64,000 bases of DNA, taken from Eledone cirrhosa (Eukaryota). A program made the translations under genes and the position numbers. The notes under the pieces are model-generated. The model was given only the letters and a program-made list of their open reading frames with translations. It ran no database searches and had not been told where the DNA came from. Positions 11,566 to 56,847 of this stretch are shown piece after piece (position 1 is the first letter of the stretch; every line of letters begins with the position of its first letter). Location: positions 12,276,001 to 12,340,000 of the forward strand of contig OZ024755.1 in the NCBI GenBank assembly GCA_964016885.1, given 5' to 3'.

Positions 11566-15870
<4,305 letters not shown>

Positions 15871-30650: not shown

Positions 30651-31960
30651 ATCTAAAATCTTAGAAGTAAATCCTACTACTCAAAACATTACTGGTGTCC
30701 TTTGAATCTATTTGTATTTTAATGTTTATGAAATTCAACAACTTAGTCAGCTTTCCATTTTCAGGTGGCAAATTAGAACAGTTGTTAGGGCACCAGATTA
30801 AAAAGCTCAATATATCAAACTAAGGTCAACTTTGCCATTCATTGTTTTAAGGGTCAGTAAATAAAGTAATAATTCAAGGGTGATGGATTTACCGAATTGT
30901 TAAAAAGTCAAAGATGATGCTTTATGGTATCTGATCCAGCTCTGTGTATTCTGAATTCAAATCTCACCCCTTTTTACTAGAAAAGCAGTGATATTTCTAC
31001 CAGGACTTGTGACTGGTAGAAAGTGTCAACAATCGAAATATCAATGAAAATATTGTTTCCTTAGTTTGATCTGATGATCACTTCATTTCTTTTCCTGCTT
31101 TTCCATTTTTATTCACCTATGGATTCAAAAATTTGTTAACCCTTTCATTGCCATATCTATAATGAAATATGCAGTACTTGAATTAAATTAATGAAGAATT
31201 TGGAAGGATTTACTAAAATTATTAATTATTATTAAGGCGGTATTTGTAACATTAATTAACAAAAATTTGTCATACTAAGTAATTTAAGTAAGAACCCTTT
31301 AGAAAGGGTGGTTTTGTTTCATAGAACCAAAGGTAGTGTGGGGTGGAATGAGTGAAATTTTCTTTCATTTCATAAGTTATAATAATTTATCTCAGATTGA
31401 CATATATTCGAAAATTTATATTCAAAATATTTTCAAAATATTTTACTGAAAGAAAAGTCGATTAACATTTTCAGGACTATATTTCTAATGAATAGACTAC
31501 CTATGTGGTTCAATTAATTTATGATATTATCAGATTTCAGTATGCTTTCATAAAATATCTGTAATTATATATAATTATTATGATGCTACTATTGATAAAT
31601 TTAAATTTCATGATATAATACATATAATTAGTGAGATATTATAATTTAAATATGAACATTTTAGTACAAGATGTCTCAAGTGGCTTGGTAATAAATGGGT
31701 TAATAAAAGTAGTTTTATAAATTTATCATGGCTTGCTTTAAGTATTTCAGTGAAAAGAATAATTATTAACAATGAAATGTAAAAAGAAATCACCTTATCT
31801 GGAAATAGATATTATCATAAAGATATAATAAATATTAAAATGGATATTATCAACAACCATTAATAATAATGATAATTTATATGTATATATATAAATATGT
31901 ATATATATATATATATATATATATGAATATATATATATATATATATATATAAATATATAC

Positions 31961-32422
31961 GTTATTCCGGGTTGAGTCGGAGGTAACCACAGTAAGTAAG
32001 GTACTCAATACATTGCAGAGTATAAGAGTTTTAATATAGATGAGATTCTACAGGACTAGAACTGTTTCATTCTTTAGAAATCATCTGGAATCTGGGTATC
32101 AAAAAATAAGTATGGTATTTATAGGTCTCTTCGGGTGGTAGGAGAGGGTAGGGAGTGGGATGGGTGTAGGTCATTGGTTGATAGAAAAGGGAATTCATTA
32201 AAAGCTAATTCTTCAAAGCTATAGTTTATTTTTATATCTAAAAATAAACTATAGCTTTGAAGAATTAGCTTTTAATGAATTCCCTTTTCTATCAACCAAT
32301 GACCTACACCCATCCCACTCCCTACCCTCTCCTACCACCCGAAGAGACCTATAAATACCATACTTATTTTTTGATACCCAGATTCTTGATGATTTCTAAA
32401 GAATGAAACAGTTCTAGTGCTG

Positions 32423-32424
<2 letters not shown>
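31961..32424. mobile_element. TA-embedded insert with a near-perfect palindrome (32049-32424, 186-bp arms), each arm carrying an HHR fold (family C)
   Basis: 4-nt loop tatc at 32235-32238; minus 32043-32093 reads AGATTC-CAGATGA-TTTCTAAAGAAT-GAA-ACAG ttctagtc CTGT-A-GAATCT; plus copy at 32380-32424. Confidence 0.8.
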
Positions 32425-32454
<30 letters not shown>

Positions 32455-32600
32455 AAGAGAAAAAGATGAAATCGAAAATGCAACTGGGGTCTAATTTTTA
32501 AAAAAATATATATATTTATTTGGTTCCTTAACCGGTTTCACAGTTCTTCTGCTTTTCAAAAGTAGAGTTGAGATGGAGGGTCTGTGGTTTTTCTCACACA
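32455..32600 (-). mobile_element. Second family B insert with U3-A8 HHR (~32527-32562)
   Basis: Close match to 28588-28700; minus strand CTT-TTGAAAA-GCAG aagaa CTGT-GAAA-CCGG-TT-AAG. Confidence 0.7.
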
Positions 32601-32694
32601 TATATATAGTCTAAGGTCAAACCAGAGTCAACATATATATGTACATATATATATATATAGAGAGAGAGAGAGTTTATATATATATATATATATA

Positions 32695-32875
32695 TCATCA
32701 TCGTTTAACGTGTATTTTCCACTCTAGCATGGGTTAGACGGGAATTGTCCCACTTGAGGCAAGATTGATCGGGTGACTGTGTCTCGCTTGTATAGGACTA
32801 TCTGGCAGGTTTTCTACAACTGGATGCCCTTCCTAACACCAACCACATTTACAGTGTGGACTGGGAGCTTTTTAC
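32695..32875 (-). mobile_element. RTE-tail SINE family S3
   Basis: (cat)n cgtttaacg..gcatgggtt..cccacttgaggcaag..ggatgcccttcctaacaccaaccac; also at 51038-51540, 53030-53156 and 63060-63313. Confidence 0.8.
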
Positions 32876-32907
32876 TCGTTTGACCTTAAACTATATATAT
32901 TGTTTAA

Positions 32908-33115
32908 TGTCAAACCAGTGGCCTGTTACTCTAGAGTTTCTCTTGTGTGTTACATATTCCTCAGATACTGCCTAAATGACTGAGAGTCTGATTATTAAGC
33001 AGTGTCTGAAGATGCTGAAACATACAAGGGAAAATCCGGAGTAACACGACACTGGCTTGACCTTAATATATTACAAATCGCTACTACGGTATTGAGTACT
33101 CATTCTCGCGTTCAT
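32908..33115 (+). mobile_element. Imperfect ~150-nt hairpin insert followed by a GTATTGAGTAC motif
   Basis: gtcaaaccagtg..gttactc..cttgtgtgtt..tcagatactgc pairs with gcagtgtctga..aacatacaag..gagtaac..cactggcttgac; motif at 33089-33099. Confidence 0.6.
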
Positions 33116-33159
33116 CAATACTAAATATATATCTCTATCTATCTAACTACTTTTATATA

Positions 33160-33330
33160 TGTGTGAAAATTAAACAGAAAATAACACAGAAAGCAATACA
33201 GTACAATGAAGGCATATATTAGGTTAACACATGATATGATAGGAAATGAGTCTTAATGTTTCAGGTGCTAGTCCTTTATCAGAAGATAGACTGAGAAATA
33301 AAAGAAGAAATAGAAAGGTAGAGGAGGGTG
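33160..33330 (-). mobile_element. Second family A insert with a decayed HHR (33251-33286)
   Basis: Reverse complement aligns with 19240-19378; TCTT-CTGATAA-AGGACTAGCACCT-GAAACATT-AAGA. Confidence 0.7.
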
Positions 33331-33377
33331 AAAAAAGGAATTTGTGTGTTCAGATACAAATATATATATATATATAA

Positions 33378-33563
33378 AACAAAGAGGGTGTGGTAAGATA
33401 CCAGGTGGACCATAACGTACCAGAGTACTCAATACATAGGATAGTAGAGTGGGTAATAGGAAAAAGGCTGAGCTCTGGCTGTTTTGACAGCTAGATCCGA
33501 ACACATTCGGATTTAACTGTTGAAACGGTTGGAGCTCAGCCATCAGGGTCCAGACTCTTTTCC
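33378..33563 (-). mobile_element. TA-embedded hairpin insert (family H)
   Basis: ttcctattacccactctacta..gtattgagtact..ttatggtcca.ctgg is shared with 36500-36620 and 53915-54050; contains a ggctgagctc...gagctcagcc hairpin. Confidence 0.75.
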
Positions 33564-33618
33564 TATATATATATACATATATATATACACACACACATAT
33601 ATATACATATATATATAT

Positions 33619-33649
<31 letters not shown>

Positions 33650-33685
33650 CACACGTATATATGTGTGTGTATTCCATAAAGAAAT

Positions 33686-33735
33686 AACTTCTACAGGTCT
33701 AGAGCTGTTTCTTTCGTTTGAAATCATCAAATATT
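33686..33735 (-). ncRNA. Family C HHR fold (partly degenerate)
   Basis: TTGATGA-TTTC aaac GAAA-GAA-ACAG ctctagac CTGT-A-GAAG; stems II and III are intact, the stem I 5' strand has diverged. Confidence 0.6.
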
Positions 33736-34425
33736 TAGACATAAGTTTTTTAATCATTACATTAATTATATCATATAATATTTGTAGATTTACAGTTTGG
33801 TTTTAATTTAGCCATTCAACTTTCTATTAGCAGTCTGTAAGAGTCTTAGCTTACATTCTAAAAACAAAATTGATATATTTGGAAAAGTTTATTCATATAC
33901 ATCTATATATTTAGGATTTCAAATGTTCAAAATATGTGCTATGCTTTAAATTAGTGACTTCTTAAAATATAAATAAAGCTATAATTGTTATAACTAACTT
34001 GTCTTTATTAGAAAAGTTTGTAATAAATTTGGAACATGCTGTCTTTTTATTCAAAATGTGGAATTCAGTAATACATCTATATTAACTATATTTCTAGTTA
34101 TAATAATAATAATGATAATAATAATAATGATGATGATAATAGTAATAATTATAATTTATTTTTCTTAAGCTTTATAAAAGTTCTTTTCTTCAATTTATTA
34201 AAAAACATTTTGTTTTGTTTTAATTTCCTTTTATAAATGCTTATGATATTACATACCATATCTTCACCATATGTTCTCCAGAAGGTTCATATTACTCTTA
34301 TTCTACTACCACCATTCCAATCCCAAGAATTATTTCTGTCATTTTCCATCAACATAAATTAATTAGTGTAAGAATTTAAAACATTTTACTCTTTGCAAAG
34401 AAAAATAATTGAAAAAAAAAAAAAA

Positions 34426-34459
<34 letters not shown>

Positions 34460-34980
34460 AAGAAAGAGAAAGAAACAGAATTATTTTTTAATATATTTCA
34501 AAAATTTTTTCATGCCATACTCTTTTAACAAATTTTAGCACCTTCTTTATGTCCATCTCATTTATATAACCAATATTTCCGATCGGTGTTATACCTGAAC
34601 ATCAAAACTAAACCCTACACAACGTACAAAATATCAAAAAGATATGATTTGGAGAATAAAGAATGACCATGAATTTAACTATTGTTATTATTGAAATGGA
34701 AATATCCATGTCATTTTCAAAGAACTGTTTTATGTTGTTTGTTTTTTTTTTATTGAGGAGGTGGAGTATGTCTTGTAGTCTATCATCAGTTTTTTTTATT
34801 ATTTTGATTCTTCTTCTGTTGTTTTTCCATTGTGCTTGCTTTTAAAGAATCATTCTTTGATTTGATTTTAATTTTCTGATAGAAAAGTTCACATTCCTCA
34901 ATTTATCCCCAAAGAAACAAAATAACCATTGCTATATTTCTAATGTAACTAGAAAACTTTATGAAGCTCCATAAATTTAA

Positions 34981-35285
34981 CTCTTAAACATCCTGTATTG
35001 CATAAAACTACATCAGCGAAATATTCTTCAAAAATACAAAACAGCATTAAGAAAATATCACATTAAATATTAAAGTCTTTATACTAATACTGCAAATGTC
35101 CACATGCAATTCCCAACCACGCATATGCAACATTATTTTTCACATAATTCACTGTGTCAAACTAAATATTAAATTTTACTCTCAAATATTGCAAATTTCA
35201 AAGCCACCACCTGTCTTTTATAATACAGGTATTATTAATGTTTGAATTAAACAGATATTTTAAAGTCATTTCAGGATGTTAAGAG
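34981..35285. mobile_element. TTAA-flanked piggyBac-like MITE (family M3)
   Basis: TTAA ctcttaaacatcctg ... caggatgttaagag TTAA; related copy at 42092-42312. Confidence 0.7.
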
Positions 35286-35337
35286 TTAATCAAATATATA
35301 TATATATACATATATTTGTGTGTGTGTGTACACACAC

Positions 35338-35391
<54 letters not shown>

Positions 35392-35440
35392 ATATATATA
35401 TATATATGTGTGTGTGTATATATATATATATGTGTGTGTG

Positions 35441-35491
<51 letters not shown>

Positions 35492-35832
35492 TCAATTCTC
35501 AGACCAGGCAATGCATTGTGTTCTTGAGCAAGAAACTTTATTTCATGCTGCTCCAGTTCACTCAGCTGTAGAAATACTGGTGCCAAGCTGTATCAACCTT
35601 TATCATTCCCTTAGACAACATCTGTAGAAAAGAGATGGAGGAGTGACATGTATGGGTGACTGTTTGTTTTCCACATAAACACAAAACACCTTATCCAGAC
35701 TTGTGCCTTGGAAAGGAAACTTTCTAGGTGCAAATCCTATGGTCATTCGGGATCATATATATATTGGGTGCTGACTTTGGTGCCCTCACCAGTTTTCTAC
35801 GGATTTACTGAACCTTCTGCCTCTATATATAT

Positions 35833-36329
35833 ATACTTTGAAAAATAAAACCAAACACTGTTAACCATATCATATTTTAATTTACCTACGTTTCATCCTT
35901 AATATCAAGAGCACAATATTAGGAATCATCAGAATTAAATAATACATAACTACCTTAAACACAGCATTTCGTCCAAAAATATATCATACTAGAGCCATTA
36001 TGTTTACAATTAAAAAATGTATCATCATACTAGGAAATAGTACTATAATATTCGTGTATTCTACGCCAATTCGTTTGAGTGCCCAAATGAATAATTTTAG
36101 TAATTATACTCGTGGTAAGTACTATTTCCTAGTATGATGGTCATTTTTTAAAAATGTAAACATAATGGCTCTGGATGATATACATTTGGACGAAATGGCA
36201 TGTTTAAGGTAGTTATATCTTATTTAATTTTGAGGATTCCTAATATTGAGCTCTTAATATTAAGAATGAAACGTACATAAATTAAAATATGATATAGTTA
36301 GCAGTGTTTGGTTTTATTTTTCAAAGTAT
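35833..36329. mobile_element. TA-embedded diverged palindrome (~210-bp arms) with an HHR-like fold in each arm (family D)
   Basis: Minus 35884-35935 CTGATGA-TTCCTAATATT gtgctctt GATATTAAGGAT-GAAACGTA; plus 36230-36275 TTGAGGA-TTCCTAATATT gagctctt AATATTAAGAAT-GAAACGTA. Confidence 0.7.
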
Positions 36330-36499
36330 TTCTTGCTCTACGTGAATTCATAATCGTTTATATTAAAATTTCAAAGCTAACTATAAGATTATATGTAACC
36401 TTATGTACGTCTTATTGTAATAAATCTCGTAGTTTTTAGCTTTATAACTTCTTCACCTATCATTATCTGTTAAAACATTACTTTATACTATATATATAT

Positions 36500-36620
36500 A
36501 TAGGAACAAGTATGACCCCGACGGCAGAGCTCAAGCCGTTTCTATTACCCACTCTACTACCCTAAGTATTGAGTACTTTGGTGCGTTATGGTCCATCTGG
36601 TTCCTTACCACCTTTCCTTC
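36500..36620 (+). mobile_element. Family H insert
   Basis: Homologous to 33378-33563 and 53915-54050. Confidence 0.7.
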
Positions 36621-36675
36621 ATTATATATATATATATATGTGTGTGTGTATGTGTAGTTAGTATAAAGTATTGAT

Positions 36676-36954
36676 CTAATGTCTGTCTTAAACCAGAAGG
36701 CTCATTTGGCCGGTGCTTATCCCGGTTTCATGGCGTGAAGTGACTGAGAGTACAAGACTCCCCCCTGGACAGGATGCCAGTCCATCGCAGGGTTAAAGCT
36801 CCAGCTATTGCTGGTACTCATTTCCAGCTGAGTATACTGGAACAACGTGAAATGAACTGTTTTGCTCAAGAACACAACACGCAACCCAGGAATCAAACCC
36901 ACGACATTATGATCGTAACTCCAACACTCTTACCACTAGGCCACGTGCCTCCAC
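36676..36954 (-). mobile_element. Full-length CORE-type tRNA SINE with 11-bp TSD
   Basis: TSD aaagtattgat at 36665-36675 and 36955-36965; minus head gtggcctagtggtaagag..ggtttgattcc; CORE ttcttgagcaaaaca; ccctgcgatggactggcatcctgtccagggg. Confidence 0.85.
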
Positions 36955-38173
36955 AAAGTATTGATATATCATCTATCTCTATATATATATATATATAGAA
37001 CATATAGAAATTGATATGTATCCTCATATATCAGTATACTGAAAATCAAAGTGTCTATTACTCCCACTTTCTATCAAATATCACCAACATATGTTATACT
37101 GATGGTAACACATGCTGTTTATCTTTCATGAATTTTTCACCTTCCATTACCAAGTAAAGCCATATTAGCAAAACATTTTTGAAATGTACAAATCAGCACT
37201 ATGACTACATCACATAAAACATAGCAGTCTTTACTGCAATGTTGTAAATTTTCACAATCATCTGTCCACTAGTCAAAATATTATAAACTTTCTACCAAAT
37301 CATAATATAATATTAAGAATTAGAGTATTTCTATGAACTGATAAATGTTTTTTGTTTAAACAAACTACATTTTCCTTTTTATTAATTCATTGCTACTTCT
37401 TTTCAAAATTTCAATTAGTTAAACAAGTTGGAATAGTTTTTCCAGAAAATTCCATAATAAAAAAAATATGATTTGTCTTGCTTTTCTTTGACTCTATATA
37501 ATCTTTAATTTTTTAACCCTTTCTTTACCATATTTCTCATGTAATAGTTGAGAATTCAGTAATTTAACTAAATTTCTCATTATAAGTTGCTTGTTGGGGT
37601 GGGGCACAAATTAACAAAGACACAAAATGAGATGCTTGCAACAAACAAGTTTGTGGCCCAAGATTTAGTTTTCCAGTATTGTTAATATTTGGGCATTTCA
37701 CTGTTATGTATGATGTAACAAAATTGGTAAATAGCTTGTATTAAATATTTTAAAACTTATAAATGAAAAAAATAAACAGAAAGATTTACATATGTTGAAA
37801 TGTTTCATAAAAGCTATACTTAAATACATCTGTCTAAAACCCCAAATAACAAGACAACATGCATTTGTTAAGGCTATCTTTTGCTGCTATAGTAGGGGTT
37901 AACTTTTCTGGCTCCATAGCATTGGTCCTTAAGACATAAATGGATATGGTGTGTAACACCCAACATATTTATTATCTATAATACAAGAACCCAATAGTGT
38001 CAGTAATTTGTTATGATATCAATACATTTCCCTACTCAGTTAAGGTAACCATTGTTAAAAGAAAAATATTCAATTCTTTCATTATCATATTTCTATGATT
38101 TTCAAATAATTTTAAAAATATGATTTTGAGAAATTTAGTAATATGAGTAACTTTTTCATTATTAAGCTAGCTC

Positions 38174-38390
38174 AAGGGCACTGGTTTGGCAGTCGGTAGA
38201 ACGTCGAACAACATGTTTCGCGGCATAGAGTTATGGCCCTTTATGTTCTGAGTCTAAATACTGCCGAGGTTAGTTTTGCCTTTCATTCTTACGGGGGTCG
38301 ATAAAATAAAGTACCAGTAATGTACTGGGGTAGATTTGATCGACTTTTTCTTTCCTCCAAAATTGTTGGCCTTGAGCCTAAATCAGAAAC
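38174..38390 (+). mobile_element. SINE family S1 with 17-bp TSD, inserted in an M1 MITE
   Basis: TSD cattattaagctagctc at 38157-38173 and 38391-38407. Confidence 0.85.
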
Positions 38391-39083
38391 CATTATTAAG
38401 CTAGCTCTTACATAAAATTATAATGAACACTTTTTTTTTAGATAAATATAAACATTTGAAAATGAAAATATTTTGCATCAGCGAACTAGAGCTGGTTTCA
38501 AGCAGTTTAGTATCAAAAGTTAAAAAACATCTTAGATTTTTACAATTATTATTATGATACTAAAAATATTAATTTTTAAAAGGTAGTTTCAAAAAATAAA
38601 ATAACAACAAAATGAGAATTTCTATTTGAAATTGATAAAGTTTTTGTCATAGATTAGTGTGTATAGTTCAGACAGTTGATGTGATAGAGTATAAGATATT
38701 CAGCCTAAAATTTGTGTTCATATCCTATCTCCAGCAGTTGGGTTGTTAGTTATATTCAATGCCAAGACACTTAACTCCACCAGGTAAAAATATCTAACAT
38801 TGTTTCATTAGCTTTCAATAATGAATTCAACTCTTCCTATGGATGTAGCTCAGTCAGAAAAGAATCAATATACTTCAAATTATCTAAAGTAAATTAACTA
38901 ACTCACTCATCTGGCAATAGATAGATTAACTGGGGAAAGTTAGTGCTATTTATAAATAAATTGACCAAAAGTATACAAGTTATTATATATACCTAGTGAT
39001 AATATATATAAATATTATCATAAGGTATATATATATAGTAATAATAAATACAAAGACCAAAATCTGAAGAGGGTGTGATAACA

Positions 39084-39146
<63 letters not shown>

Positions 39147-39228
39147 AGTAAGGTTGCTTGGATGCATCGATAGGCGGTATGCCGGTTGAGCACTTGTGTT
39201 CCAATGCATCACTGATTCTTCATTTTCC

Positions 39229-39282
<54 letters not shown>

Positions 39283-39776
39283 TACATATAAACCCATACA
39301 GCAAATATTTATTATTGGTACAGATTAAAGTTTAAGCAAAGAATTTCTGCTTTCACCCTATTCGGGATCTTTCAGGAGATCCCATATTGGGTGAAATATA
39401 TATATATACATATATGTGTGTGTGTGTCTGTATATATATATACCCATGCTAGCATGGAAGAACGGACATAAAACGGTGATGATGATGATATATATATACT
39501 TTATTGTCTCTATACTCTGTATATGTCTTAATTCAATGGACATTTAGTGTGTTTATTATAAAAACCCATATATGTAATAGTGAGTATTTACTTCAAGGGT
39601 TTTGCTGATACTACTAGCTTCTTAAAGCTGTTTTAGGAACCCAGTATTATTAGTGAAACTTTGAAGTAAACAGTCACTATTATTAATAAATATTATTTTC
39701 CCTCCACAAACAGTATTTAAGTCCTTCACTGAGTGCATTTTAAGTGTATTTAGATATAAAAACCTATGATATATTT

Positions 39777-39815
<39 letters not shown>

Positions 39816-39919
39816 AATGAAATTAGAATTTTATTTCTCGCTCTAACATGCATATTTATATATATATATATAACAAGATTCTTCAAAGCATTTAAACAGT
39901 AAAGGATATAGAGATTCTT

Positions 39920-40145
39920 TATAATAATAATAATGAAATTATTGTGTACAGTGCTCAGGTGCACTACAACTCATCAAAGGTGCATGTATAGTACATAGAA
40001 TAATGTACAAATGTCAGGAAAATAAACAGTGTATGAGTCATGATATAATAACAATAACAATAATGAAATATTGTGCACAGTGCCCAGGTGCACCACAACC
40101 CATCAAAAAAGTGCATGTACAGTACATAGGGCAATGCACATATGA
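39920..40145. repeat. Two tandem ~95-bp copies (aataataatgaaat..cagtgctcaggtgcac..acaac..), probably retroposon 3' ends
   Basis: 39920-40015 versus 40050-40145. Confidence 0.6.
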
Positions 40146-41229
40146 ATGATAAATTAAAATTTCATAACAACAACTTGTGCTTCATAATTTTGTCTTCATA
40201 TGGTGATGAGTGTAATATTAATTAAGCATTCAATAAACTTCATTATATTAAATACCAATAGTAACAAATGATAAGATAACTTAAATTAATGTATTATTGT
40301 TGTTATTGGTAGATCATTGGTCATACTTAGCAGCATTGTTATGTTCCTGCACAACAGGTCCGAACATAGAAGAGCCAAACTCCAACTGTCATTGCCTCCA
40401 TCTTTCTTGTCCTCCCCATCTCTCTCTATTATGAGCAAATGGGATCCCAAGGCCCTAGTTGATGGTAAGGGAGATGTGTTGGAAGAACCATTCCATTTCA
40501 TGAGGTTCAGACCTGTGGCTAGCCAGCTCAGAGCCTATGGTGGTAAGTAGGGAGGTAGCCCTAGAGCCAAGAACACCAGAAGTCTCCACTGCTAGGTAGC
40601 TAAATGTTAAAATTATATAAAATGTGAACCCCTTTTGTACATATTAATACATGGCGTATGAAGACTAGGTGGATAGTGTATTTGGTTTGGATTTTAGTTT
40701 TCAAATTCCTTTGCAAATGTGCTTCATACTTAGGTACAAATTATATTATAAACCTCAAGCTTAATTAAGAATCATTATTCATCATACAATACTTAATTCA
40801 CCTGAGACAATTTACTTTAAAATCAGGCTTAAAATGTAATCTGTTTTAGAATTTATAAAAATTTTATTTTCATTCTTTTTTTTATTTTTGTGTGTGTTTA
40901 AAAAAATCTCAATTTGAAAAAAAAATTGCTGTTTTACATATTTGTCTGTTGGATATATTCCCTTCATGATAATTGTAACTTTGGTGCTTAACTGTAAAAT
41001 GTTATGGTTTATTAATGTGCTATTGTTGTTATTGGATGAAATGGTGGTGCTCCAGAAATATTGATGGCATTCCTTTAAGGATAAACTTTTAAAAAAAATA
41101 ACAAAAAAGAGAGACAAAAGAGTATTTTGCCTGTGATATTAAATTTTGTCCTTGTTGATGATTCGATGTAAACCTTTCATTTGTTCCTATTGTATTTTTG
41201 ACTTATTATTATCATTATTATTATTATTA

Positions 41230-41272
<43 letters not shown>

Positions 41273-41421
41273 TATTATCTGGTTCCATATTTTACCTTGC
41301 CATTGGTAAAAATCTTTTATACCTTTTAACTGTTGCCTTATTGTGAGAAGTTAAATGAATATTTCCCTTTAAAAACAATTGATCAATATATTGTAGAGAA
41401 GAATTTTGCTATTGCTTAAAC

Positions 41422-41746
41422 CAGTGTTTCTCAACTTTTATTATCCCCTAAATCACTTTGATTAAAAAACATAACAAAAAAACTTGCACCTCTACTATGG
41501 TCAAAGTTAGTATATATCATAGCACATACGTTCTATTCTGAAGTCTCATGCCCCACCATGGTTGGACAAAGTTAGTGCATAGCATAGTATATACATCCCA
41601 TTCTGAAGCTCCATGATAATAGACAAAGTTATTATATAGCATACTATATAGCATAGTATGTATGCTCTATTCTGAAATCACACACTCCCACCAAAATATT
41701 GCCATGTCCTATAAGTGGGGCATACACCCCATCTTGAGTAACACTG
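41422..41746. mobile_element. hAT/Charlie-type MITE
   Basis: TIRs CAGTGTTTCTCAA / TTGAGTAACACTG; 8-bp TSD gcttaaac / gcttagac. Confidence 0.8.
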
Positions 41747-41795
41747 GCTTAGACTATGTTATATAACAATTCCTTAATAATTTCATTTCTATATA

Positions 41796-41985
41796 CTGTG
41801 CAGCTCTGTTATAACACAATGGTTGGGAGTCCATAAAATATCATCGGGGTCATATTAAATTGGGGTTCAAAAAATTTAAGGGGTTCAAGTAGATCCGGAA
41901 AGAGCAAAAAAAAAAGAGGTTCTAATGATTACTCACATCATATCTGAATTTGAGTTAAATTGGGGCACATAACAGGGCTACACTG
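41796..41985. mobile_element. Possible Tigger/pogo-like MITE
   Basis: Imperfect TIRs ctgtgcagctctgttat / ataacagggctacactg. Confidence 0.45.
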
Positions 41986-42552
41986 TTTTGTTTTGTATAT
42001 TTCATTTATCATTATACTTTCTGTTGCTGCTTCTTTCATTGTCTTCTGTTTTATCTTAATATTAAATCTTGGATATTTATCACTTATTTAACTCTTAATA
42101 TCCTGTATCACATGAAACTAAATTAGCAAGACAAGATATTCTTGAGAATTATAAAACATCGTTATAATTGCAACACATTGAAAATGAAAGTCTTTACTTT
42201 AATATTGTGAAATTTCACAATGATCTGTCCACTAGTAAAAATACTATAAACATTTGAATTAACAAACTTGTTTTTAGATATTTTCTATTAACTCATTACA
42301 GGATGTTAAGAGTTAGTAAACAACAGCAGTTAGATACTACACAATTATAGACTTTTAGCTTACAAAATCATCAGCTTTCTTTCATACAATAAATAGTTAA
42401 TATGATATTAATACTTAGCAATCACTAAGTTAGATTTTCTTTCATTTTTTAATAATCATTGATAAAATATTAATTGCTTTTATATTATTCCTAAATATTT
42501 TCTAAATATTTTGAAAATGCATAGTTTTGTAAGAATTCACTTATTTATCTCA

Positions 42553-42930
42553 ATGACTAAATTAATGGTTATATAGAGATGGTTAAATTAATGGCTAAAT
42601 ATAGAGATGACTAAATTAATGGTTATATAGAGATGGCTAAATTAATGATTAAATATAAAGATGGCTAAATTAATGGCTAAATATATAGATGGCTAAATTA
42701 AGGGTTATATATATATGGATGACTAAATTAATGGTTATATATATATATATATATAGATGACTAAATTAATGGTTATATATATTTAATTGTTAAATATATG
42801 GAGGACTAAATTAATGGTTATATTTAGAGATGGCTAAATTAACTGTTATATACATGGATGACTAATTTGAAAGTTATATATATATGGAGGAGTAAATCGA
42901 AAGTTTTATATATATATATGGATGAGTAAA
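42553..42930. repeat. ~26-bp minisatellite gatggctaaattaatggttatatata
   Basis: Direct inspection, ~13 units. Confidence 0.9.
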
Positions 42931-45900
42931 TAATTTTCTTATACTATAGAAATATTTCCCAAATTATTCTGCTGATAAAGTAAAAAATTCATTGATATTC
43001 TATCAGATGGAAAAATACCATTTATCAGCCTATTATTTGAAAGATATTAGAGCAGTGGCGATGGAATCTCAGTATCAATAGAGCAGTGTATAATATGTTT
43101 TGCAACTTATAATTATGGCCCTTTACATTCTGAGTTTAAATTCCATTGAGATTGGCTTCATTTTTCCCTTTTATGGGATCAATAACATAAAATACCAGTA
43201 ACATACTGGGGCCGATTTAATCAACTTTTGACTTTCCTTGAAATTTCTGGCCTATTCCCTGAAATTTCTGTGCTAAAACTAGAAACAATTATTTGGAATG
43301 TATTCACTTTAATAAATACACTATGTGACCCAAATACAAGGTGGTTAACAATTAATATCATATATCTTTTTCAAAACATGTACCACTTTAATTTTCCTCT
43401 ATCATTTATGTTAATACACAATTAAATCTGAGAGAAAATGGTTTTAAATTTACCCATTCTAAAGAGTTCTTAATATCCTTACTTAAAGACATAAAATCAA
43501 TAACCAACATTAGCCATTTTGTTATATTTCTAATGAAAGACACAGCTACCTATGATTTTCAAATAATTTTGAAAATAATAAAGAATTTGAACGGATTTCA
43601 TAATATAAATAATTTTTCTCATTATTTCTTTGGAGTTTGGAACATATCTTAACAAAGGTTCTTACATAAGATTATGATGGAAGGTTTATACATATATATA
43701 TACATATATACATATATATATATACACATTTTAAAAGAAATAGGGATGATTTCAAGAGGCTTGGTATGAAAATGGTTATGGCACCATAAATCCAATAAAA
43801 CAAAAAATGTTTGTAGTCACCCTTCTGAGTTCAAATGCCATTAAGGTCAACTTTGTCTTTCACCCTTTTGAGGTTAATAAAATAAAGCACCAGTCAAGTA
43901 CTGGGGTCAATACAACTGACCTTTCCCTCCTCATGAATCACTGGGCTTCAATTACATTAATTTTCATTGTTAGGATAGTGCACACCTGCCAGGTGATATT
44001 GACCATCTTGAATATCTCTACTATTGTGAAAGTCTCTTAACTTGACCAATAAAACATACAAGTTGAAGTCTATAAACTATCTTCAGTCTATATATCAAAG
44101 TTATTATTGTATTTTATCATGTATGATATGAGAAAATTTAAACTAAAATTTAAGACAAAAAAGTAAGAAATTTTTACCAAGTTTTAAAATAATCCTTTCA
44201 AATGACAAGATTGCAAATACACTCAGTTGGCATTTCAATTCAAAATGCAAAACATCTGGTTGTTTTACATTCTTCAACATCATGAGAAACTGAATATTGT
44301 AGTGAAATAATATATGTGAGTCAAGATTTTGACAAATAACATGGTACATGTTTACAAGATTGTATTATACATAAGGATGTAGTTTATTCTTGTTTTTTGT
44401 TTTAGCTTAAGAAACAAGAATTATATTAGACTCAAGTTATATTATACACTAGAAAATATAGTATATAATTGTGTAAGTCAAAGTGATAACAAACATATCA
44501 GATTGAAATTTAAGAAATATATACTTCACCATCATATGTAATGTAAGTCTATTTGAAACTTGATGTTTTTTTTTTATATATATGGGAATGTTTTGTGTAA
44601 TAATGTTGTTTGCATGTGTTCTGTCTATTCCAAGACCAGTTTTCTATCTGTGATAAAATTGTAAGCCTGATGACACATAATAGTATTTCAATATATATAG
44701 CTTTTGGTGGTTAAATATTTTCTCTCAAACATTTATGCATCTTTGCTTTTCTTTCAATCTTAAGTTGGTAGCATCTATAATTGTTAGGTTATTACTAATT
44801 TTTTTTATTAGTGTTGAAGCAAAAGAGTAATTTCTAGTAATAATCATTAGTTTTGTTTCCTAATTTTTAGTAATGTTTTCTTTTTTTTTTTCTTCACCAA
44901 AACAACAAAAGAAACAAAGAAAGAGAATTATGTTATTAAACTTAATTTTTGAAATTTAATTTGCAAATTATTATGCCAATTACTATTTTTTTCTTTGTCT
45001 TACATAAATTCTTTGTTTGAGGTTCTTCAGAGAAAAAGGGGTTTCAAAACCTTTTTATTTTATCAAGTGAAATAATGTGGACAATCAAAGGCTGCTGGTC
45101 AAAAGAAAAGGAAAGGAAAAAAAATATTTTTGCTGTATCTGTGATTTTTGTGTTGGATGACCTCCAAATGTTAATTGGAGTACAATTATTTTGGCAAAAT
45201 ATTTTGTACATGCAATAGCCACTTCTGGAAATAAGTTATATATAAAACTGATATTATCTTCAAGTGGAAAAGAAAATTAAATATCTACTATTTTAGACAT
45301 TTAAGAAGCCGTGCTTTTTTTTTTTTTAATTCTTCAACTTAAATTAATTCAGAAAATTTTCAGTTCTACTGATTTATGGAAAAAAATATTTTAAATTTTA
45401 AACCTCAGTGTTAAAAAAAAACAATGGAAAGAGCTATTTAAAATCAAATACTTACTTTTTTATAAAACAATTTCAAAGAAAAAAGGTTTAGAATTTTCTT
45501 AAGCATGTTAAACTTTGATCATGATATTTCATTCAGTAATAGAACAGTAACTTCTAAGTTGTTAATTGGATTGTCACATACAGCGAATTTAAATGATGAT
45601 TCCTTATTACTTTTTTTTTTTTTTTTTTTTTTTCAATTTGTTTATTAGCTTTTGTTTTAAGATAAATATTATTTTTATTCATTGCTCTTTCTAATCAACC
45701 TCATTATTTTGAAATGTCTGACAAAATTCTCCTGACATTTTGAAATTTAAAAAAATTGCAAATGAAGCTATACCATGATTTGATTAGGCTTTCATATACC
45801 TATTATGAATCATGAGAATTTTACAATTAAAACATTTTTTTTTTTTCAATTTTTCAATTAGTTGACTTTTACTTATTTATTATTATTATTTTTCAAAAAT

Positions 45901-47504
45901 AAAACAAGAATATAAAATATTTTATTTATTAAATATATGGTTACCATTATTCCATCCAACATGAAACAATAGATCATTTGCATAACTATAACCCTAAACT
46001 ATAAATGAAACTGAACAGGATTTGTTCTCCAGAATAATAATAATAATAATAATTAACCTTTAAGTGTTGTTATTTAACATTTACTACACTGGTTCTATGT
46101 TGACTTTATGATATAAATCATACATCGAATTCTATCTTCTGGAGAATATTTATTTACAGACTTGTCCAAGTGGATCCGGCCTCTTTTGAAAAACACTGAA
46201 TGATGAAAATGTTTTTTAAAACAACTTTCAAATATTTTTAAAGTATATACAATGTTTTAGTATTGATTGATGATCTTCAACTTCCTATGAAATCTATTTC
46301 TAAATATATTGATCTAGTATTTTTGCTCTGTATTACATGTGATTCAAAATTCATTTTATTGTTTATTTTCTGTTTGTTTTTTTTAATGCATTGTTAAATG
46401 GAAATAGAAATATAAAAACTCTTAGATTCCCCAAATTCTAAGAGTAACTTAGATTATTATTAATAAATTCTTATTTCTTCCCAAAAATGGTTATTACTTT
46501 CTGTAATTCTATATATGTGTTTTTTTCTCCTGATTGTGTGGTAAAAGAAAATTGTGAATTTCATTACATTTGTAATTTCTCTGTGAATATTATGGTGCTA
46601 ATTTATCAATTCAGCAAATCTTAATTGTTTTTGTAAATAAATTTGATTGAGAACAGACAAAATATTTTGCTCCCTGCATAAGCTTTTTGTTAAGGACTGT
46701 CAATGGAATATTTTTTACTATTAAATTGAGAATGATATTTTAATATCAAACGTTTACCATTTTTTTTTAAAATCTCATATCTGTTTTCTAACTCCTTGTA
46801 GTAATTTTAAAAATAATTGCCACACTAATTAATTTCAAATTTATTATTATTATTTCTTGACAGTTTCATGCAAGTTCCTCCTGCATGAACAGGTGAACTA
46901 TTATTACAATTATTATTATTATTATTATTATAATTATTATTATTATTATTATTATTACTATTATTAATATTATTATTATTTCTTTTTTTTTTATTTAAAA
47001 AAAAATTACTTATTTATTTAAATAATAATTTACTATAATGATCAAATTCTTGCTTAAACTTTTGGCTTGATATAAAAAAGAACAGTAGAAATATATTAGA
47101 CTTAAAACAATATGAATGAATATATATATTTCTAAGTAGAAAGCTTCTAGAATTTTTCTTCTTTTCCTTTTATAATTCATAAAAAAATTGAAACCATTTC
47201 CAAATTTCTTGCCAAAATTTGATACATTTTTTGCGGTGCGAGATGCCCTGAAATAAAAACAAAATTGAAATCAATATGAATGTAAAAGGACATCGATTAA
47301 TAAAGTAAAAAAAACAATATTATATTGAAAAACAAATTACATTGGCTAATTATGTAATAATTATGTAATCCCTGATTGAATGGTGTCATCTATTAGCTTC
47401 TATAATTGGTATTCTAGGTCTTATTCTCACACACACTCTATGTATGTATGGAAAGAGAGATGCATGCGTCTATGGATAGAGGGAGGGATGTATGTGTGTA
47501 TACA

Positions 47505-47551
<47 letters not shown>

Positions 47552-48264
47552 AACTCTATGCTCAAGCTTAAACCATTTCAATGGTTGAATGACCATGAAA
47601 GTGGTTTAAGCTTTACAGTATCAAGTGCTAATTTGAATAATAATGTTACTAGTCTTTTAATAAGTAACATCTTATCCATATATGTATATATTTTTCTCCT
47701 CTCTCTCTCATACATACATCTATTGATGAGGTAAAGGTCTGACTGCGAGGCTGGTTGTTTTCAACTTGTAATATATATATTTGCAAAAGCAGGACCAGAA
47801 GCAAATCATGTCTTGGCTGAAGCCATTTTGAGAAGTTTGGGATAAAATGTATAGCCAACCCTTTTCTTATGTACATGAACCTCTGAAAGATCATGAAGAG
47901 ACTGGATGCTCGACATCTTGAAGCTATCAATCTTTATATACTTACATAATATCTCAAATATATTTCCATTACAGAGTGAAGGAAATTTTCAAATTTTGTT
48001 CAAAGGAACCTGAAACTATAAATCTTAAATGTACCCATTTCTTCATAAAAGTTTGTATGGTTAGGCAACTAAGACTGAGTTTAAAATCCTAGCATTTTCA
48101 TGTTATAAAGTTCTTTGCAGATGTAAGATGAGGATTTATAGATATGAACATATTTTTGAAAAATAATTTCCTCCCTTTTGACATATCTAAAATTATACCC
48201 CAAAGCATAAATAACTATTTCTATTTATACTAAACATGTATACATACAACGTTCAGACATTAAC

Positions 48265-48378
48265 TGAATGAGCACTCAATACATGTGAACAGAGAATAAA
48301 AATTATTTTCTGAAGACAAAGGTGGCAGTGACTTCAAAGTTTCAGCATCACCGCCACTTTCCTCTTCAAAAAATAATT
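48265..48378 (-). other. Hairpin followed by GTATTGAGTGC motif
   Basis: aattattttctgaaga..aaaggtggcagtga / tcaccgccacttt..tcttcaaaaaataatt; motif at 48272-48282 (-). Confidence 0.5.
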
Positions 48379-49950
48379 ATGTCTATTCACAATAAAAATC
48401 TTAATGCCTAAACAATGAAGCAGCTATGATTCTATGCCAATTTATTATTATTAGTATTCTTTAACAGTATTTTTAACACTGCATTTTTAACAATAGATTA
48501 AAATGTTCAAAAGTTTTCTGATTTCTGCTTCAACATTTTAGTAATTTTTTTTTTTTTTAGTTGAATACTTCTAAATATTTGCAGATTATTTAGATGTTAG
48601 GAATGATATGTGCTGAGAAGTTGATCTTTAGTTGATATCTCTATAAAATCACATTTTAATTTTGTTAAAATATTCATTGAACTAGATAGTATATTTTCAC
48701 TTCATTGTTTTAATTAAAATGTGTAAAAAGTTAACTATTATTTATATAACAAAAAATAATCAGTATCAGAATAATTAAAATGTTAATAGCATCCAAAATA
48801 AAATAGATTAAAAAGAAATGATTCCATTATCTGAGTAAATTTAATCACATATTTCATGATAGATATAACCATTTAATTTATTTGAAATATTAGACTAACT
48901 CAACTATCAGCTAATAGACAACTCCTGGTGAAGGTAAAACAACTACAGTGTTCAATAGAAAAAATGTACTGTAGAAAATTTATTGTTGTTTCCTTCATGA
49001 GGACTTGGATTCATTACTGAGAACCATTCATTATCTGGTGCTTTGGTTACTTTCTGCAATGAACTGTATCAGTACTTGTTGGTACTTTATGGATTGAGCC
49101 AGTATTAGTTAAATATTTTGTCTATGAACAAAACTCATTTCTGTTGCTAATACAGAAACCATCAAGCTTCTCTGTATAATGAAATAAAAACTTAACCCTT
49201 CCATTACCATATTTTTAATGAAAAACACTGCCTATTGTTTTCAAATAATTATGAAAATAATTAGATTGGTGTTTGAAGCATAACTTAAAGATTATGAGGG
49301 AATATTTGTTTTAGATACAAACAGTTTAAAATAATCAGATTTGTATCATAGTCCCTGGGGTGTTTCCAGGCAGTTTGATAATGAAAGGGATAAACATAAT
49401 TTACAATCATTTCTTAGTAACACTAAGACTTAAGTGCAACATATTATCATCTATTCACCAATATTATGAAGAATATTTGAAAGAAATCTTTCATCTTTGA
49501 TCTGTAAAATAATCATAAAGTATAGACATGTGATAGAAAATGAAGGATGTGCATCTGAAACATCAAAGTTTTGATTTTCAATTGAAGAAGCAGTTTCACA
49601 AAAATCATGCTTCTAAATGCTCCTTAGAAAAGCTTTGAACATCATAACTTCATATTTCTATTACGTAATACATACATTTCTGATCCATAAAATGTATGAC
49701 TATTTTGCTTTAACAATAACAGATATTCATTTCCCAGTTTATCCTCTTTCATATCTCCAAATATCTTTTTTCTATATGAAGCATTATGAAATATATGGCT
49801 CGGATGGTTTTAGGAAAGCTAATATTTATTTCTATATTTTCCTTTTTAAAATGTATATATTTCATGGCTTAGCTTTACATACAATTTATTATTTAATATT
49901 ATTTCTCAGAACTTTTCATAAAGATTATGAAATATATATCTATATATCTT

Positions 49951-50161
49951 CATCATCATCATTTTACGTCCACTTTTCCCTGCTTGCAAGGGTAGGACGG
50001 GTTCTATTCAGCACAGCATCTCTCCACTTGTCACGGTCCTTCGTCATCTCGACCGTGAGCTTCAGCGATCTGAGGTCTGCTCTCACCACCTCTGCCCATA
50101 TTTTTCGTGGACTTCCTCTACTACGTTTTCCTTCAACTGGCATTTCTTGGCACTTCTTCAC
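49951..50161 (-). mobile_element. 5'-truncated, young RTE LINE 3' end
   Basis: Open frame VEGKRSRGSPRKIWAEVVRADLRSLKLTVEMTKDRDKWRDAV then stop and (ATG)n tail. Confidence 0.88.
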
Positions 50162-50415
50162 ATATGTATATATATATAGTCTTCACATATGTATATATAT
50201 ATAGTCTTTGTAATTTTTTTGAAATATTGCATGGCTACTATGTGTAGTTCTTACACACAGGATGTTGTAATGAAACTGTACAGTTCGGAGCAGTATTTTG
50301 TACCCACACTAATCCATTTATCCACTATTTAACATATCATGCAATTTTTGTAAATTCATTGAGTGAGTGGATGGTGGCTGAGCTAGATGTAACCTAATAT
50401 ATATATATATATATA

Positions 50416-50655
50416 TATTTAATATAGAAATGGCTTCTACAGGACTAGAACTGTTTAATTTGGGAGAAATCATCAGGAAGCCGACTGTCCAAGGAATATG
50501 GTGTATAAATACCACCATATTACTTGGTGATTTCTCCCAAATTAAACAGTTCTAGTCCTGTAGAAGCCATTTCTATATTAAATATTTATACTCTGCTATG
50601 TATTGAGTACCTTACTTACTGTGGTTGCCCCCAATGGAACCCAGGATAAACTTAC
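50416..50655. mobile_element. Family C palindromic insert with HHR fold (50432-50482, -)
   Basis: Minus strand GGCTTC-CTGATGA-tttctcccaaat-TAA-ACAG ttctagtc CTGT-A-GAAGCC; inverted arm ~50528-50585; tail gtattgagtaccttacttactgtggtt shared with 31985-32011. Confidence 0.8.
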
Positions 50656-51672: not shown

Positions 51673-51965
51673 AATGATATTAATAAATAGAAACTATATT
51701 TATAAAACCATATTTATTTTATTATATATATTTCAAGGATACCAAAAAAACTTTGGTACGGTCTCATCAGATAAAATACAAAATTTGTTTTATCCAAATG
51801 GAACCTAAACTGATAATGCTTGGTTTATTGGGTATGTCACTATTTATAAAACAAATTTTGTATTTTATCTGATGAGAGCGTACCAAAGTTTTTTGGTACC
51901 CTTGAAATATATATAATAAAATAAATATGGTTTTATAAATATAGTTTCCATTTATTAATATCATT
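51673..51965. mobile_element. Palindromic insert (~120-bp arms) with two intact-core HHRs (family E)
   Basis: Plus 51863-51921 TTTTAT-CTGATGA-GAGCGTACCAAA..TTTGGTACCCTT-GAAA-TATATA-TA-ATAAAA; minus copy 51717-51776. Confidence 0.8.
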
Positions 51966-52288: not shown

Positions 52289-52291
<3 letters not shown>

Positions 52292-52625
52292 GATATTAAT
52301 AAATGGAAACTATATTTATAAAACCATATTTATTTCATTATACATATTTCAGGGATACCAAATTAAATTATGGTATGCCTTCATCAGACAAAATACAATA
52401 TATAACAGTTTTACAAATAAGCTTTGACGTACCCTTTTAAAATGCGACCATTATTTTTGGAAGCCATCAGGTATCCCTGAAATATGTATAATGAAATAAA
52501 TATGGTTTTATAAATATAGTTTCCATTTATTAATATCGTATATCTACTCCAAATACTTGTCGAGTGCTTTATATCAGTTATAAAAATATTTACTTGTTGT
52601 ATCCCAACAATTTTAAATAGAACTT
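52289..52625. mobile_element. Second family E palindromic insert with HHR (52333-52393, -)
   Basis: Minus strand TTTTGT-CTGATGA-AGGCATACCA..TGGTATCCCT-GAAA-TATGTA-TA-ATGAAA; ~70-bp arms 52289-52359 / 52470-52540; gtcgagtgc motif at 52559. Confidence 0.78.
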
Positions 52626-53914: not shown

Positions 53915-54050
53915 GTTAGACAGCTAGATCCAGATCTCAGAGCTCAGCTGTCAGGCTCCTGACTCTTTTCCTATTACCCACTCTACTACACTAAGTATCA
54001 AGTACTCTGGTGCGTTATGGTCCATCTGGTTCATTACCACACTTGCTTTG
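53915..54050 (+). mobile_element. Family H insert
   Basis: Homologous to 33378-33563 and 36500-36620. Confidence 0.7.
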
Positions 54051-54894: not shown

Positions 54895-55037
54895 TATAAA
54901 TGTACCAGCAATACACTGGGGTTGGTTAATCAGCTGTATCACACCTCCTGCTATAATTGTTTTGCATATAAGTACAAAACTAATACTTCTTGCAAACCAG
55001 AAAATTAAACAATTAGTTTGATTATAATCAGATATAC

Positions 55038-56847
55038 ACATTCCATTTCTTAGCCATCACCATCACATTCCATTTCTTAGCAATCACATTCCATTTTTTA
55101 GCAATCACATTCCATTTCTTAGCCATCACCATCACAAGTCCATTTCTTAGCCATCACCGTAACACTTCCTTTCTTAATCACCATCCCATTCCATTTCTTA
55201 GCTAGCCATCACCATCACATTCCATTTCTTAGCCATCACCATAACACTTCCTTTCTTAGCCATCACCATCACATTCCACTTCTTAGTCATCATCATCATC
55301 ACACTCCATTTCCTTTCTAAGTCATCACCATTACCTCCCGTTTTTTAGTTATCACCATCACACTCTATTTCTTAGTCATCACCATCACATTTCATTTCTT
55401 AACCATAAACATCATACTCCATTTTTTAGTCATCCCCACCATACTCTATTTCTTAGCCCTCACCACCATTCTTCATTTTCTTGTCATCATATTTACACAC
55501 CATTCCCTTTCTTAGCCATCACCAATACAATCCATTTCATCATCATCACCATCACACTCCATTTCTTAATCATAACTATTGCTTTCTATTTCTTAGTCAT
55601 CAGCATCTCACTTCATCATCACCATCACAATCCATTTCTTAGCCATCACTACCACACTCTATTTCTTAGTTATCATCACATTCCATTTCTTAATCATCAC
55701 CATCACACTCTATTTCTTAGTCATCACCATCACATTCTATTTCTTAGTCATCACCATCACATTCTATTTCTTAATTATCACTATCACACTACAGTTCTTA
55801 GCCATCACCATCACTCTCCATTTCTTAGCCATCACCAACACATTCCATTTCTTAACTATCACCATCATGCTGCATTTCTTAACCATCACCATCACTCTCC
55901 ATTTCCTAGCCATCACCAACACATTCCATTTCTTAACTATCAACATCATACTGCATTTCTTAACCATCACCATCACTCTCCATTTCCTAGCCATCACCAA
56001 CACATTCCATTTCTTAACTATCAACATCATACTGCATTTCTTAACCATCACCATCACTCTCCATTTCCTAGCCATCACCAACGCATTACATTTCTTAACC
56101 ATCACCATCATGCTGCATTTCTTAACCATCACCATCACTCTCCATTTCCTAGCCATCACCAACGTATTACATTTCTTAACCATCACCATCATGCTGCATT
56201 TCTTAACCATCACCATCACTCCATTTCCTAGCCATCACCAACACATTCCATTTCTTAACCATCAATATCATACTGCATTTCTTAACCATCACCATCACTC
56301 TCCATTTCCTAGCCATCACCAACACATTCCATTTCTTAACCATCACCATCATGCTGCATTTCTTAACCATCACCATCACTCTCCATTTCCTAGCCATCAC
56401 CAACACATTCCATTTCTTAACCATCACCATCATGCTGCATTTCTTAACCATCACCATCACTCTCCATTTCCTAGCCATCACCAACACATTCCATTTCTTA
56501 ACTATCAACATCATACTGCATTTCTTAACCATCACCATCACTCTCCATTTCCTAGCCATCACCAACACATTCCATTTCTTAACCATCAATATCATACTGC
56601 ATTTCTTAACCATCACTATCACTCTCCATTTCCTAGCCATCACCAACACATTCCATTTCTTAACCATCACCATCATGCTGCATTTCTTAACCATCACCAT
56701 CACTCTCCATTTCCTAGCCATCACCAACACATTCCATTTCTTAACCATCACCATCATGCTGCATTTCTTAACCATCACCATCACTCTCCATTTCCTAGCC
56801 ATCACCAACACATTTCTTAACCATCAATATCATACTCCATTTCTCAT
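55038..56847. repeat. 27-bp minisatellite; the distal ~1 kb forms an 81-bp trimeric higher-order repeat
   Basis: Monomers catttcttaaccatcaccatcatgctg / catttcttaaccatcaccatcactctc / catttcctagccatcaccaacacattc repeat in order ~12 times over 55845-56810; diverged monomers upstream. Confidence 0.93.

Follow-up and report, generated by a model that had tools for sequence, protein, structure and literature searches.

Hammerhead motifs in an Eledone cirrhosa genomic window are decayed insertions of a high-copy Hydra-clade Penelope-like retrotransposon

Three hammerhead ribozyme motifs in a 64,000-nucleotide stretch of Eledone cirrhosa DNA (GenBank assembly GCA_964016885.1, contig OZ024755.1, positions 12,276,001 to 12,340,000 of the forward strand; referred to below as the window and numbered from its first letter) were found to be decayed, 5'-truncated insertions of a Hydra-clade Penelope-like element (PLE), representing three subfamilies of this retrotransposon. 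The motif is real, the element is of a known kind and the family is new. On balance, the data probably reflect terminal-repeat insertions of a high-copy element. All its subfamilies retain the type I hammerhead, which is likely to cleave only weakly and, in all probability, as a double hammerhead, with new copies likely made from uncut RNA. Within this account, the identity of the element, its copy number, compensation in stem I at the level of subfamilies and the mapped positions of insertion ends are observed, and the mechanism is a proposal.

Two of the first 30 loci with an intact ribozyme core were found to continue into an open reading frame (ORF). A complete natural copy, L065, comprises a ribozyme and tail, an ORF of 713 amino acids, a 3' untranslated region (UTR), a second ribozyme, 22 more bases and (TA)n. 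It begins 9 to 10 nt ahead of core position C3, and the ORF starts about 135 nt past the cleavage site. Between ORF and terminal repeat, the 3' UTR holds ∼3 kb of mixed (TA/TG)n and ∼600 unique bases, and because of this microsatellite tract the element reaches about 6 kb, against <3 kb for published Hydra-clade elements, a trait that is descriptive rather than diagnostic. A protein search gave 11,921 candidates, and among the 150 scored, many had an open 758-codon frame. The single ORF joins reverse transcriptase (RT) to a C-terminal GIY-YIG domain (E = 2e-4, just under the Pfam cut-off). Of the Hydra-clade features defined in section 11 of PMC8557442 (DKT, CxCx5C, CxxC/CxH and RWK), the protein carries SDKT, CNCLNKEAC as the CxCx5C linker, CDLC as CxxC and CMH as CxH, with no CCHH; RWR stands in place of RWK, as it also does in a few relatives. 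There were 1,404 protein relatives, the best of which matched at 39 to 54%. The insertion traits of the clade were likewise present, namely, a (TA)n target, a pseudo-long terminal repeat (pLTR), an inverted 5'-truncated copy and an optional tail. Two other identities were rejected. A non-LTR retrozyme would consist of short tandem noncoding repeats, whereas the copies lie scattered or in inverted pairs and have an ORF linked to them; Hydra-1_Obim, as given in supplement passages of PMC8557442, differs in its protein start and its ribozyme. Three further observations concern the element itself: a (TA/TG)n tract of ∼3 kb, as inside L065, would disrupt both genome assembly and the construction of a consensus; downstream of the L065 stop codon, there are two more GAGTACC-like motifs; and at locus L032 (1348 to 1848, plus strand) the element is adjoined by a fragment of another GIY-YIG PLE family with a different C-terminal endonuclease sequence.

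An exact pattern for the intact core matched 20,979 times in the 3.0-Gb genome and its reversed control not once; hence, the motifs do not arise by chance. A 27-base motif of the tail matched 15,616 times. To sample copies regardless of their ribozyme, the first 90 tail matches, all from one contig, were taken, and their ends were mapped with 140-nt unique references; 31 of the 90 were too truncated or gapped for the core to be counted. All fixed core letters were kept in 40 of the 59 copies with an ungapped motif. The sequence-only reading on which this work builds had held that each genomic copy carries a core substitution and that only the consensus would be active. One core change was indeed present in each of the five window copies, but genome-wide the claim failed, given thousands of copies with an intact core. 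At the family level, the core of a type I hammerhead was found (CUGANGA, GAAA and UH around three helices, open at stem I). Both in the tail-anchored copies and in a comparison of classes, the catalytic core positions were fixed, while N7, the sole free core position, varied. Counting against this conservation, most search patterns required the core and stem III, so that their invariance is partly ascertained; the L065 copy and the tail-anchored copies are the unbiased checks.

In the window, all three motifs lie on the minus strand, starting at 32043, 33686 and 50432 (Table 1). The first reads CAGAUGA in its core, followed by stem II as U-UUC-uaaa-GAA-U, GAAA, ACAG-uucuaguc-CUGU and GUA; at position 32086, the family letter accounted for 567,335 of a depth of 568,139 in DNA-type contigs of run X1. 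The second reads UUGAUGA (U for C3), with UUUC-aaac-GAAA as stem II and cucuagac as loop III, and the 5' strand of its stem I is absent. The third has an intact core apart from G12>U. All three lie inside (TA)n, and the 32043 and 50432 loci each have an inverted plus-strand arm, which had been overlooked. In the plus arm at about 50503 to 50654, an internal deletion has taken out the 5' strand of stem I together with some of the core; since both arms of this locus (50432 to 50568) carry G12>U, the change may be older than the insertion or than the second arm. When the window was scanned with a descriptor that allowed one core change, there were two full matches, 32043 to 32093 and an unrelated motif at 51861 to 51923. 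No remnant of a PLE ORF was found within the window or 10 kb to either side. In Rfam, 214 matches were obtained for the window, and the 150 of them that were listed included no hammerhead; nor was there one among the 6 matches that an intact family copy gave at E ≤ 10, which reflects limited coverage by its models and not absence of the motif.

The strands of stem I read AGATTC/GAATCT in class A, AGCTTC/GAAGCT in B and D, and GGCTTC/GAAGCC in C, with a bulged U in E and GAC(A)TTC/GAAGTC in F; the last was found 68 times genome-wide by pattern and exactly in 17 of 32 rows from 30 loci. Between subfamilies, pairs 4, 5 and 6 have each undergone one two-sided change, and a G·U intermediate was seen in one copy. 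For pair 4 (2.4-1.4), genome-wide patterns gave 12,278 A-U, 663 A-nonU, 4,255 C-G and 219 C-nonG copies, i.e., two Watson-Crick types in 16,533 of 17,415; a further 2,032 copies, mostly of a bulged class, had U or G at the 5' position. Among eight classes delimited by loop II, differences were confined to N7, loop II, one flank of loop III and the three compensated stem I positions, whereas 45 of 92 columns of the tail varied. The A and D classes were split at 100/100 in the ORF tree, from the reading of which L121 was left out as a mis-anchored long branch. The chance that six substitutions among 12 sites make three complementary pairs was roughly 8e-4. In an alignment of 13 hand-picked copies with native upstream sequence, in which F is misregistered through its bulge, covariation was 0.139 versus 0.065 in shuffles (0/500) and at most 0.041 in slid controls. 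An extension of the helix as stem Ib was considered, and the upstream letters were variable without clear compensation.

These numbers must be weighed against the fact that there were only three independent compensatory events and that shuffles ignore relatedness. The support for stem I is thus that of three events multiplied by copying, not of thousands. It could also be asked whether the pairing arose at inversion junctions, where the 5' strand would have been copied off the 3' strand. Junctions of this kind do occur (L090, L097 and L364). However, the same pairs are found in native-upstream copies, including the 32043 and 50432 window loci, and in ORF-linked copies, and the bulged 5' base of E and F is impossible to copy from the 3' strand; this explanation is largely refuted already and highly improbable. 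The paired stem I changes first noted between 32043 and 50432 stood; the locus at 33686 has lost its stem I. Likewise, the proposed selection on RNA structure, to be checked by genome-wide correlation of stem changes, was borne out for stem I and failed for stem II, as described below; moreover, selection acted on the master lineages of the retrotransposon and not on the three decayed window loci.

In stem II, U·U at the base is the family state, with position 11.1 being other than U in 224 of 17,415 copies; a hand count of 100 listed non-U rows gave 33 A, 38 C and 29 G. Because departures from U are so rare and sporadic, the U-A pair found at 33686 represents a private mutation, and the compensation once claimed for this stem is one-sided. 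Stems II and III did not vary between subfamilies and are therefore uninformative on covariation. The constancy noted at the window loci for stem III (ACAG/CTGT) was confirmed. All four positions of loop II differed between classes, and no conserved partner in loop I was seen. Among 26 rows of Hydra-clade hammerheads in File S2 of PMC8557442, stem III has 3 to 4 bp and a loop of 1 to 3 nt throughout, ACAG/CUGU occurs in 4 and U·U flanks stem II in 14 (own count). Of 77 metagenome loci at 35 to 43% protein identity, the descriptor returned 48 rows, 47 of which had ≤8 nt between A15.1 and U16.1, versus 14 here. Since relatives from both sources have shorter loops, it is the 8-nt CUAG-centered loop that distinguishes the family; both the U·U and a stem III of ACAG/CUGU have been described before in the Hydra clade.

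The 4-bp stem III had been suggested to permit monomeric cleavage, and the 8-nt loop does make this sterically possible. An efficient monomeric hammerhead would let each copy cut itself, with unit-length RNA circularized and copied by rolling-circle reverse transcription, following the model of Cervera and de la Pena. Consistent with this, the stem III hairpin folds by itself (−1.4 kcal/mol), and its loop exceeds that of every Hydra row in File S2. However, stem II is weak, and in ViennaRNA the monomeric hammerhead had an ensemble probability of 0.00001 to 0.03 in six natural intact copies; the inference from stem III is correspondingly weak. In five of the six, the cofold minimum was a double hammerhead with intermolecular stems I and III and CUAG at its center, often with stem II slipped. 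A U·U hammerhead from axolotl was 22% cleaved in an hour alone and did better as a dimer (PMC7229834). Weak cleavage, presumably assisted by a dimer or by protein, is favored here over monomeric cleavage. Several results temper even this. With only 3 bp in stem II, closed by U·U, and a free loop II, no tertiary contact is evident; the window copies folded no better than shuffles (z of −0.2 to −0.9); other folds won once 15-nt flanks were added; and the loop III palindrome was statistically unremarkable, as 10 to 13% of loop permutations paired as well and any hairpin is able to dimerize in cofold.

The positions of insertion ends bear on how copies are made. The 3' ends formed two groups, one at about +5 to +30 and the other at +85 to +95 past the cleavage site. 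Priming at cleaved ends was tried as an explanation and rejected, since 21 ends lay at GUA versus 15 at a control site; hence, nothing sets apart the window arm that stops at GUA (32424). Of the 5' ends of the 90 tail-anchored copies, 30 lay at −7 to −3 relative to C3 and 11 at −2 to +2, with 35 scattered from +3 to +74 (one of them at the cleavage site), none at −70 to −8 and 14 at −79 or beyond. An inverted partner was present in 57 of the 90. A TATAAA box started 34 to 39 nt ahead of C3 in 66 of 82 native-upstream copies, which were defined by a motif overlapping the box, so that its presence, though not its spacing, is partly built in. In 27 distant Hydra-clade loci, TATA[AT] lay 31 to 43 nt ahead of C3 in 14 (rotation mean 4.4, 0/2000), using a window taken from the present family after the distant sequences had been seen, with near-duplicates dropped. 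The usual spacing between a TATA box and the start of transcription is ∼30 nt. Because of this spacing, the predicted start is placed on the first base of stem I, where the 5' ends pile up.

Downstream of the ribozyme, GAG[CT]AC occurred within 150 nt in 22 of the 27 distant loci, compared with 0.14 expected per 150 nt. It appeared mostly as GCTC..GAGCAC, often doubled, and (TA)n junctions lay just ahead of the first or second motif; the family itself has ACTC..GAGTAC and a degenerate second copy. The pattern GCTC-N(5-28)-GAGCAC, often doubled, follows the ribozyme across the clade (metagenome Hydra-clade loci L155 to L231), and NCTC..GAGNAC was found in the sense orientation in 62 of 77 metagenome loci versus 17 in antisense. 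Among DNA-type contigs from four runs, those of X1 showed a depth about tenfold lower upstream of stem I, a result that was not relied on because depth across contigs measures poorly; the small shares in runs X5 and X6 say nothing about host range.

These sequence patterns suggest an RNA that begins at the ribozyme and serves as template without being cut, with the short inverted inserts being run-off complementary DNAs (cDNAs) folded back. In the proposed scheme, the TATA box in the repeat would direct transcription from the first base of stem I onward, giving an RNA with a ribozyme at both ends. The RT-endonuclease of the element would nick (TA)n, and RT would start internally, about 20 or about 90 nt past the scissile bond, in each case just ahead of an RCTC..GAGYAC-type motif. 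Copying from the 5' ribozyme would run off the RNA end after 70 to 140 nt and the cDNA would fold back, yielding short head-to-head inverted pairs as at 32043 and 50432, and long copies would derive from the 3' repeat. Cleavage may then be a slow processing or regulatory event, such as decapping or release from read-through transcripts, that is not obligatory for each insertion. A precedent is Poseidon of Anolis, which inserts mainly from RNA that has not been cut and whose tail results from two internal RT starts (PMC11167929).

A circular template, as in the monomeric model, would span the scissile bond without a break as well. However, it offers no reason for a hard 5' boundary at −7 to −3 with an empty zone behind it. 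The full copy L065 also starts ahead of C3, and the monomer-and-circle model as a whole is considered unlikely. Other points weigh against a start at stem I: the construction of the two TATA counts noted above, the TATA-less internal promoter of Drosophila virilis Penelope (PMC2377424) and, as the main rival, the possibility that RT, on longer transcripts with an incidental TATA box, could stall or switch templates at stem I, e.g., when a dimer pairs this stem in trans. The peak coincides exactly with the 5' strand of stem I, a small CAG..CTG inverted repeat at the peak could seed fold-back, and self-priming has been proposed at inverted PLE junctions (PMC3846280); the same source gives a putative TATA and initiator (Inr) for a rotifer pLTR. 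Against stalling, the TATA spacing is retained in distant loci, non-inverted copies share the same end, and in subfamily F, where the stem I strand is 1 nt longer and the mini-repeat is lacking, the ends shift to −7 and the TATA box to about −38. Stalling at stem I is thus regarded as possible but rather doubtful.

It might further be argued that the motif is retained as a noncatalytic RNA structure, for protein binding or end joining, and seldom or never cleaves. The apparent use of uncut RNA for insertion, the presence of G12>U in both arms at 50432, possibly from before insertion, and the continued insertion in vitro of Poseidon cleavage mutants (PMC11167929) would fit such a role. It is nevertheless judged quite unlikely, as the catalytic positions are exactly fixed while the free N7 varies and the same core recurs in relatives at about 40% protein identity. 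A bolder extension of the start-site scheme, entertained tentatively and doubtful as it stands, is that the hammerhead serves the Hydra clade as a terminally redundant "R region." Transcription would start from TATA at stem I, RT ahead of GCTC..GAGCAC would give DNA like the strong-stop product of retroviruses, and the 5' and 3' ribozymes would pair via the CUAG-centered stem III as a double hammerhead, uniting the RNA ends for strand transfer and controlling decapping; tens of thousands of short inverted insertions would be failed transfers.

Table 1. Features of the hammerhead-bearing insertions in the window
Feature	Positions	Strand	Remarks
PLE tail (long 3' end, ∼83 nt beyond stem I), abutting (TA)n	31960..32042	-	Most tail copies end alike, at +85 to +95
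Conserved tail motif ACTC..GAGTAC; candidate RT-binding element	32001..32021	-	GCTC..GAGCAC in distant Hydra-clade loci
Type I hammerhead, subfamily A	32043..32093	-	Stem I AGATTC/GAATCT; private U4>A
Upstream pLTR/3' UTR part of the 5'-truncated arm	32094..32235	-	96% match to full-length copy L065
TATAAA box, 36 nt ahead of C3; predicted start at first base of stem I	32118..32123	-	Sequence; putative promoter
Inverted partner arm: TATAAA at 32350-32355; hammerhead at 32380-32424, carrying C3>U; terminates at GUA within (TA)n	32237..32424	+	
Old copy cut off at about C3; 3' flank resembles subfamily F; stem I lost	33686..33730	-	Private changes at 11.1 and in loop III
Short 3' end abutting (TA)n	50419..50431	-	Sequence
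Type I hammerhead, subfamily C, with native upstream sequence	50432..50482	-	GGCTTC/GAAGCC; G12>U; 93% match to ORF-linked copy L076
Inverted partner arm: TATAAATA; same G12>U; tail (motif at 50590-50610) running into (TA)n	about 50503..50654	+	Sequence

Other hammerheads and repeats were observed in the window. The motif at 51861 to 51923 (plus strand), with an inverted mate at about 51700 to 51785, belongs to a second family of the classical minimal PLE type, with an intact core, a long stem II and a minimal palindromic stem III, and forms a head-to-head pair in (TA)n. An inverted pair at 52290 to 52560 belongs to a related family; its minus arm has CUGAUGA, a long stem II, a CUGAAA junction and UAUGUA as stem III, and similar copies occur at L068 and L340. 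At about 35875 to 35940 (minus strand), a third type I family looks intact, with TTAATT/AATTAA as stem I, a long stem II, a CGUAGG arm and GUA followed by (TA)n. Short noncoding repeats in (TA)n at 33340 to 33575 (minus), 36495 to 36630 (plus) and 53950 to 54050 (plus) carry the ACTC..GAGTAC tail motif and no intact hammerhead core; they are possibly nonautonomous passengers of the same RT. The sole host coding piece noticed was the last exon of a C2H2 zinc-finger gene at about 1810 to 2365 (plus). A 5-kb strand-skewed (TA/TATG)n array occupies 10719 to 15859, and a 1.8-kb minisatellite with 27/81-bp units occupies 55037 to 56844.

Hammerheads are known from PLEs, and the present family bears on what they do there and on how the head-to-head inverted copies and tails arise. 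As the family is young and abundant, with intact ORFs, several subfamilies and >20,000 intact ribozymes, its insertion ends can serve to chart the RNA, that is, its start, the priming sites of RT and an intact scissile bond in the template. If the start-site reading is true, promoter, ribozyme and priming motifs are joined for the whole clade in one testable replication scheme; otherwise, the family is an unexceptional new one among PLEs. It is the pattern of start site and priming motifs that merits testing. A large ribozyme family has also been missed by Rfam. Minimal and dimeric PLE hammerheads were reportedly also treated by Lunse et al. in 2017. The literature searched held no account of this family or of a start site registered to a hammerhead; subscription papers and the Repbase and Dfam libraries lay outside the search, and the variant may already be listed in the supplements of a retrozyme preprint (bioRxiv 10.64898/2026.07.22.740005) or in the text of Lunse et al. 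2017. Passages of PMC13282606 make no mention of a ribozyme or of Hydra.

The close known systems include the Hydra clade itself (Craig et al. 2021, PMC8557442; Penelope-1_NV, Hydra-1_Amil and Hydra-1_Obim). With it, the family shares a single ORF of RT and C-terminal GIY-YIG, the DKT, CxCx5C, CxxC and CxH motifs, (TA)n targets and a type I hammerhead. It differs in having RWR instead of RWK, ∼6 kb instead of <3 kb, an 8-nt loop III with a centered CUAG instead of 1 to 3 nt, and >20,000 intact ribozymes. As in the minimal and dimeric PLE hammerheads (Cervera and de la Pena 2014, PMC4209133), the type I ribozyme lies in terminal repeats, truncated copies are dispersed, opposite-strand pairs occur, loop III has a palindromic center and consensus families show covariation; here, however, stem III is a real helix of 4 bp, and stem II has 3 bp and lacks G10.1-C11.1.

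Poseidon PAc of Anolis (Frangieh et al. 2024, PMC11167929) similarly has two end classes that define a tail past the cleavage site, AT-rich targets and an uncut template, the last of which is here suggested by the insertion ends. In contrast to the present family, it belongs to another PLE clade, its ORF starts inside the ribozyme and its activity was shown in vitro, whereas here activity is a prediction. Finally, HHR_Amex2, a non-LTR retrozyme of axolotl (PMC7229834), resembles the family in its type I hammerhead, the U·U at the base of helix II and a very high copy number. Its tandem noncoding repeats make circular RNA and have a 2-bp helix III, whereas the ribozymes described here are dispersed and tied to an autonomous ORF.

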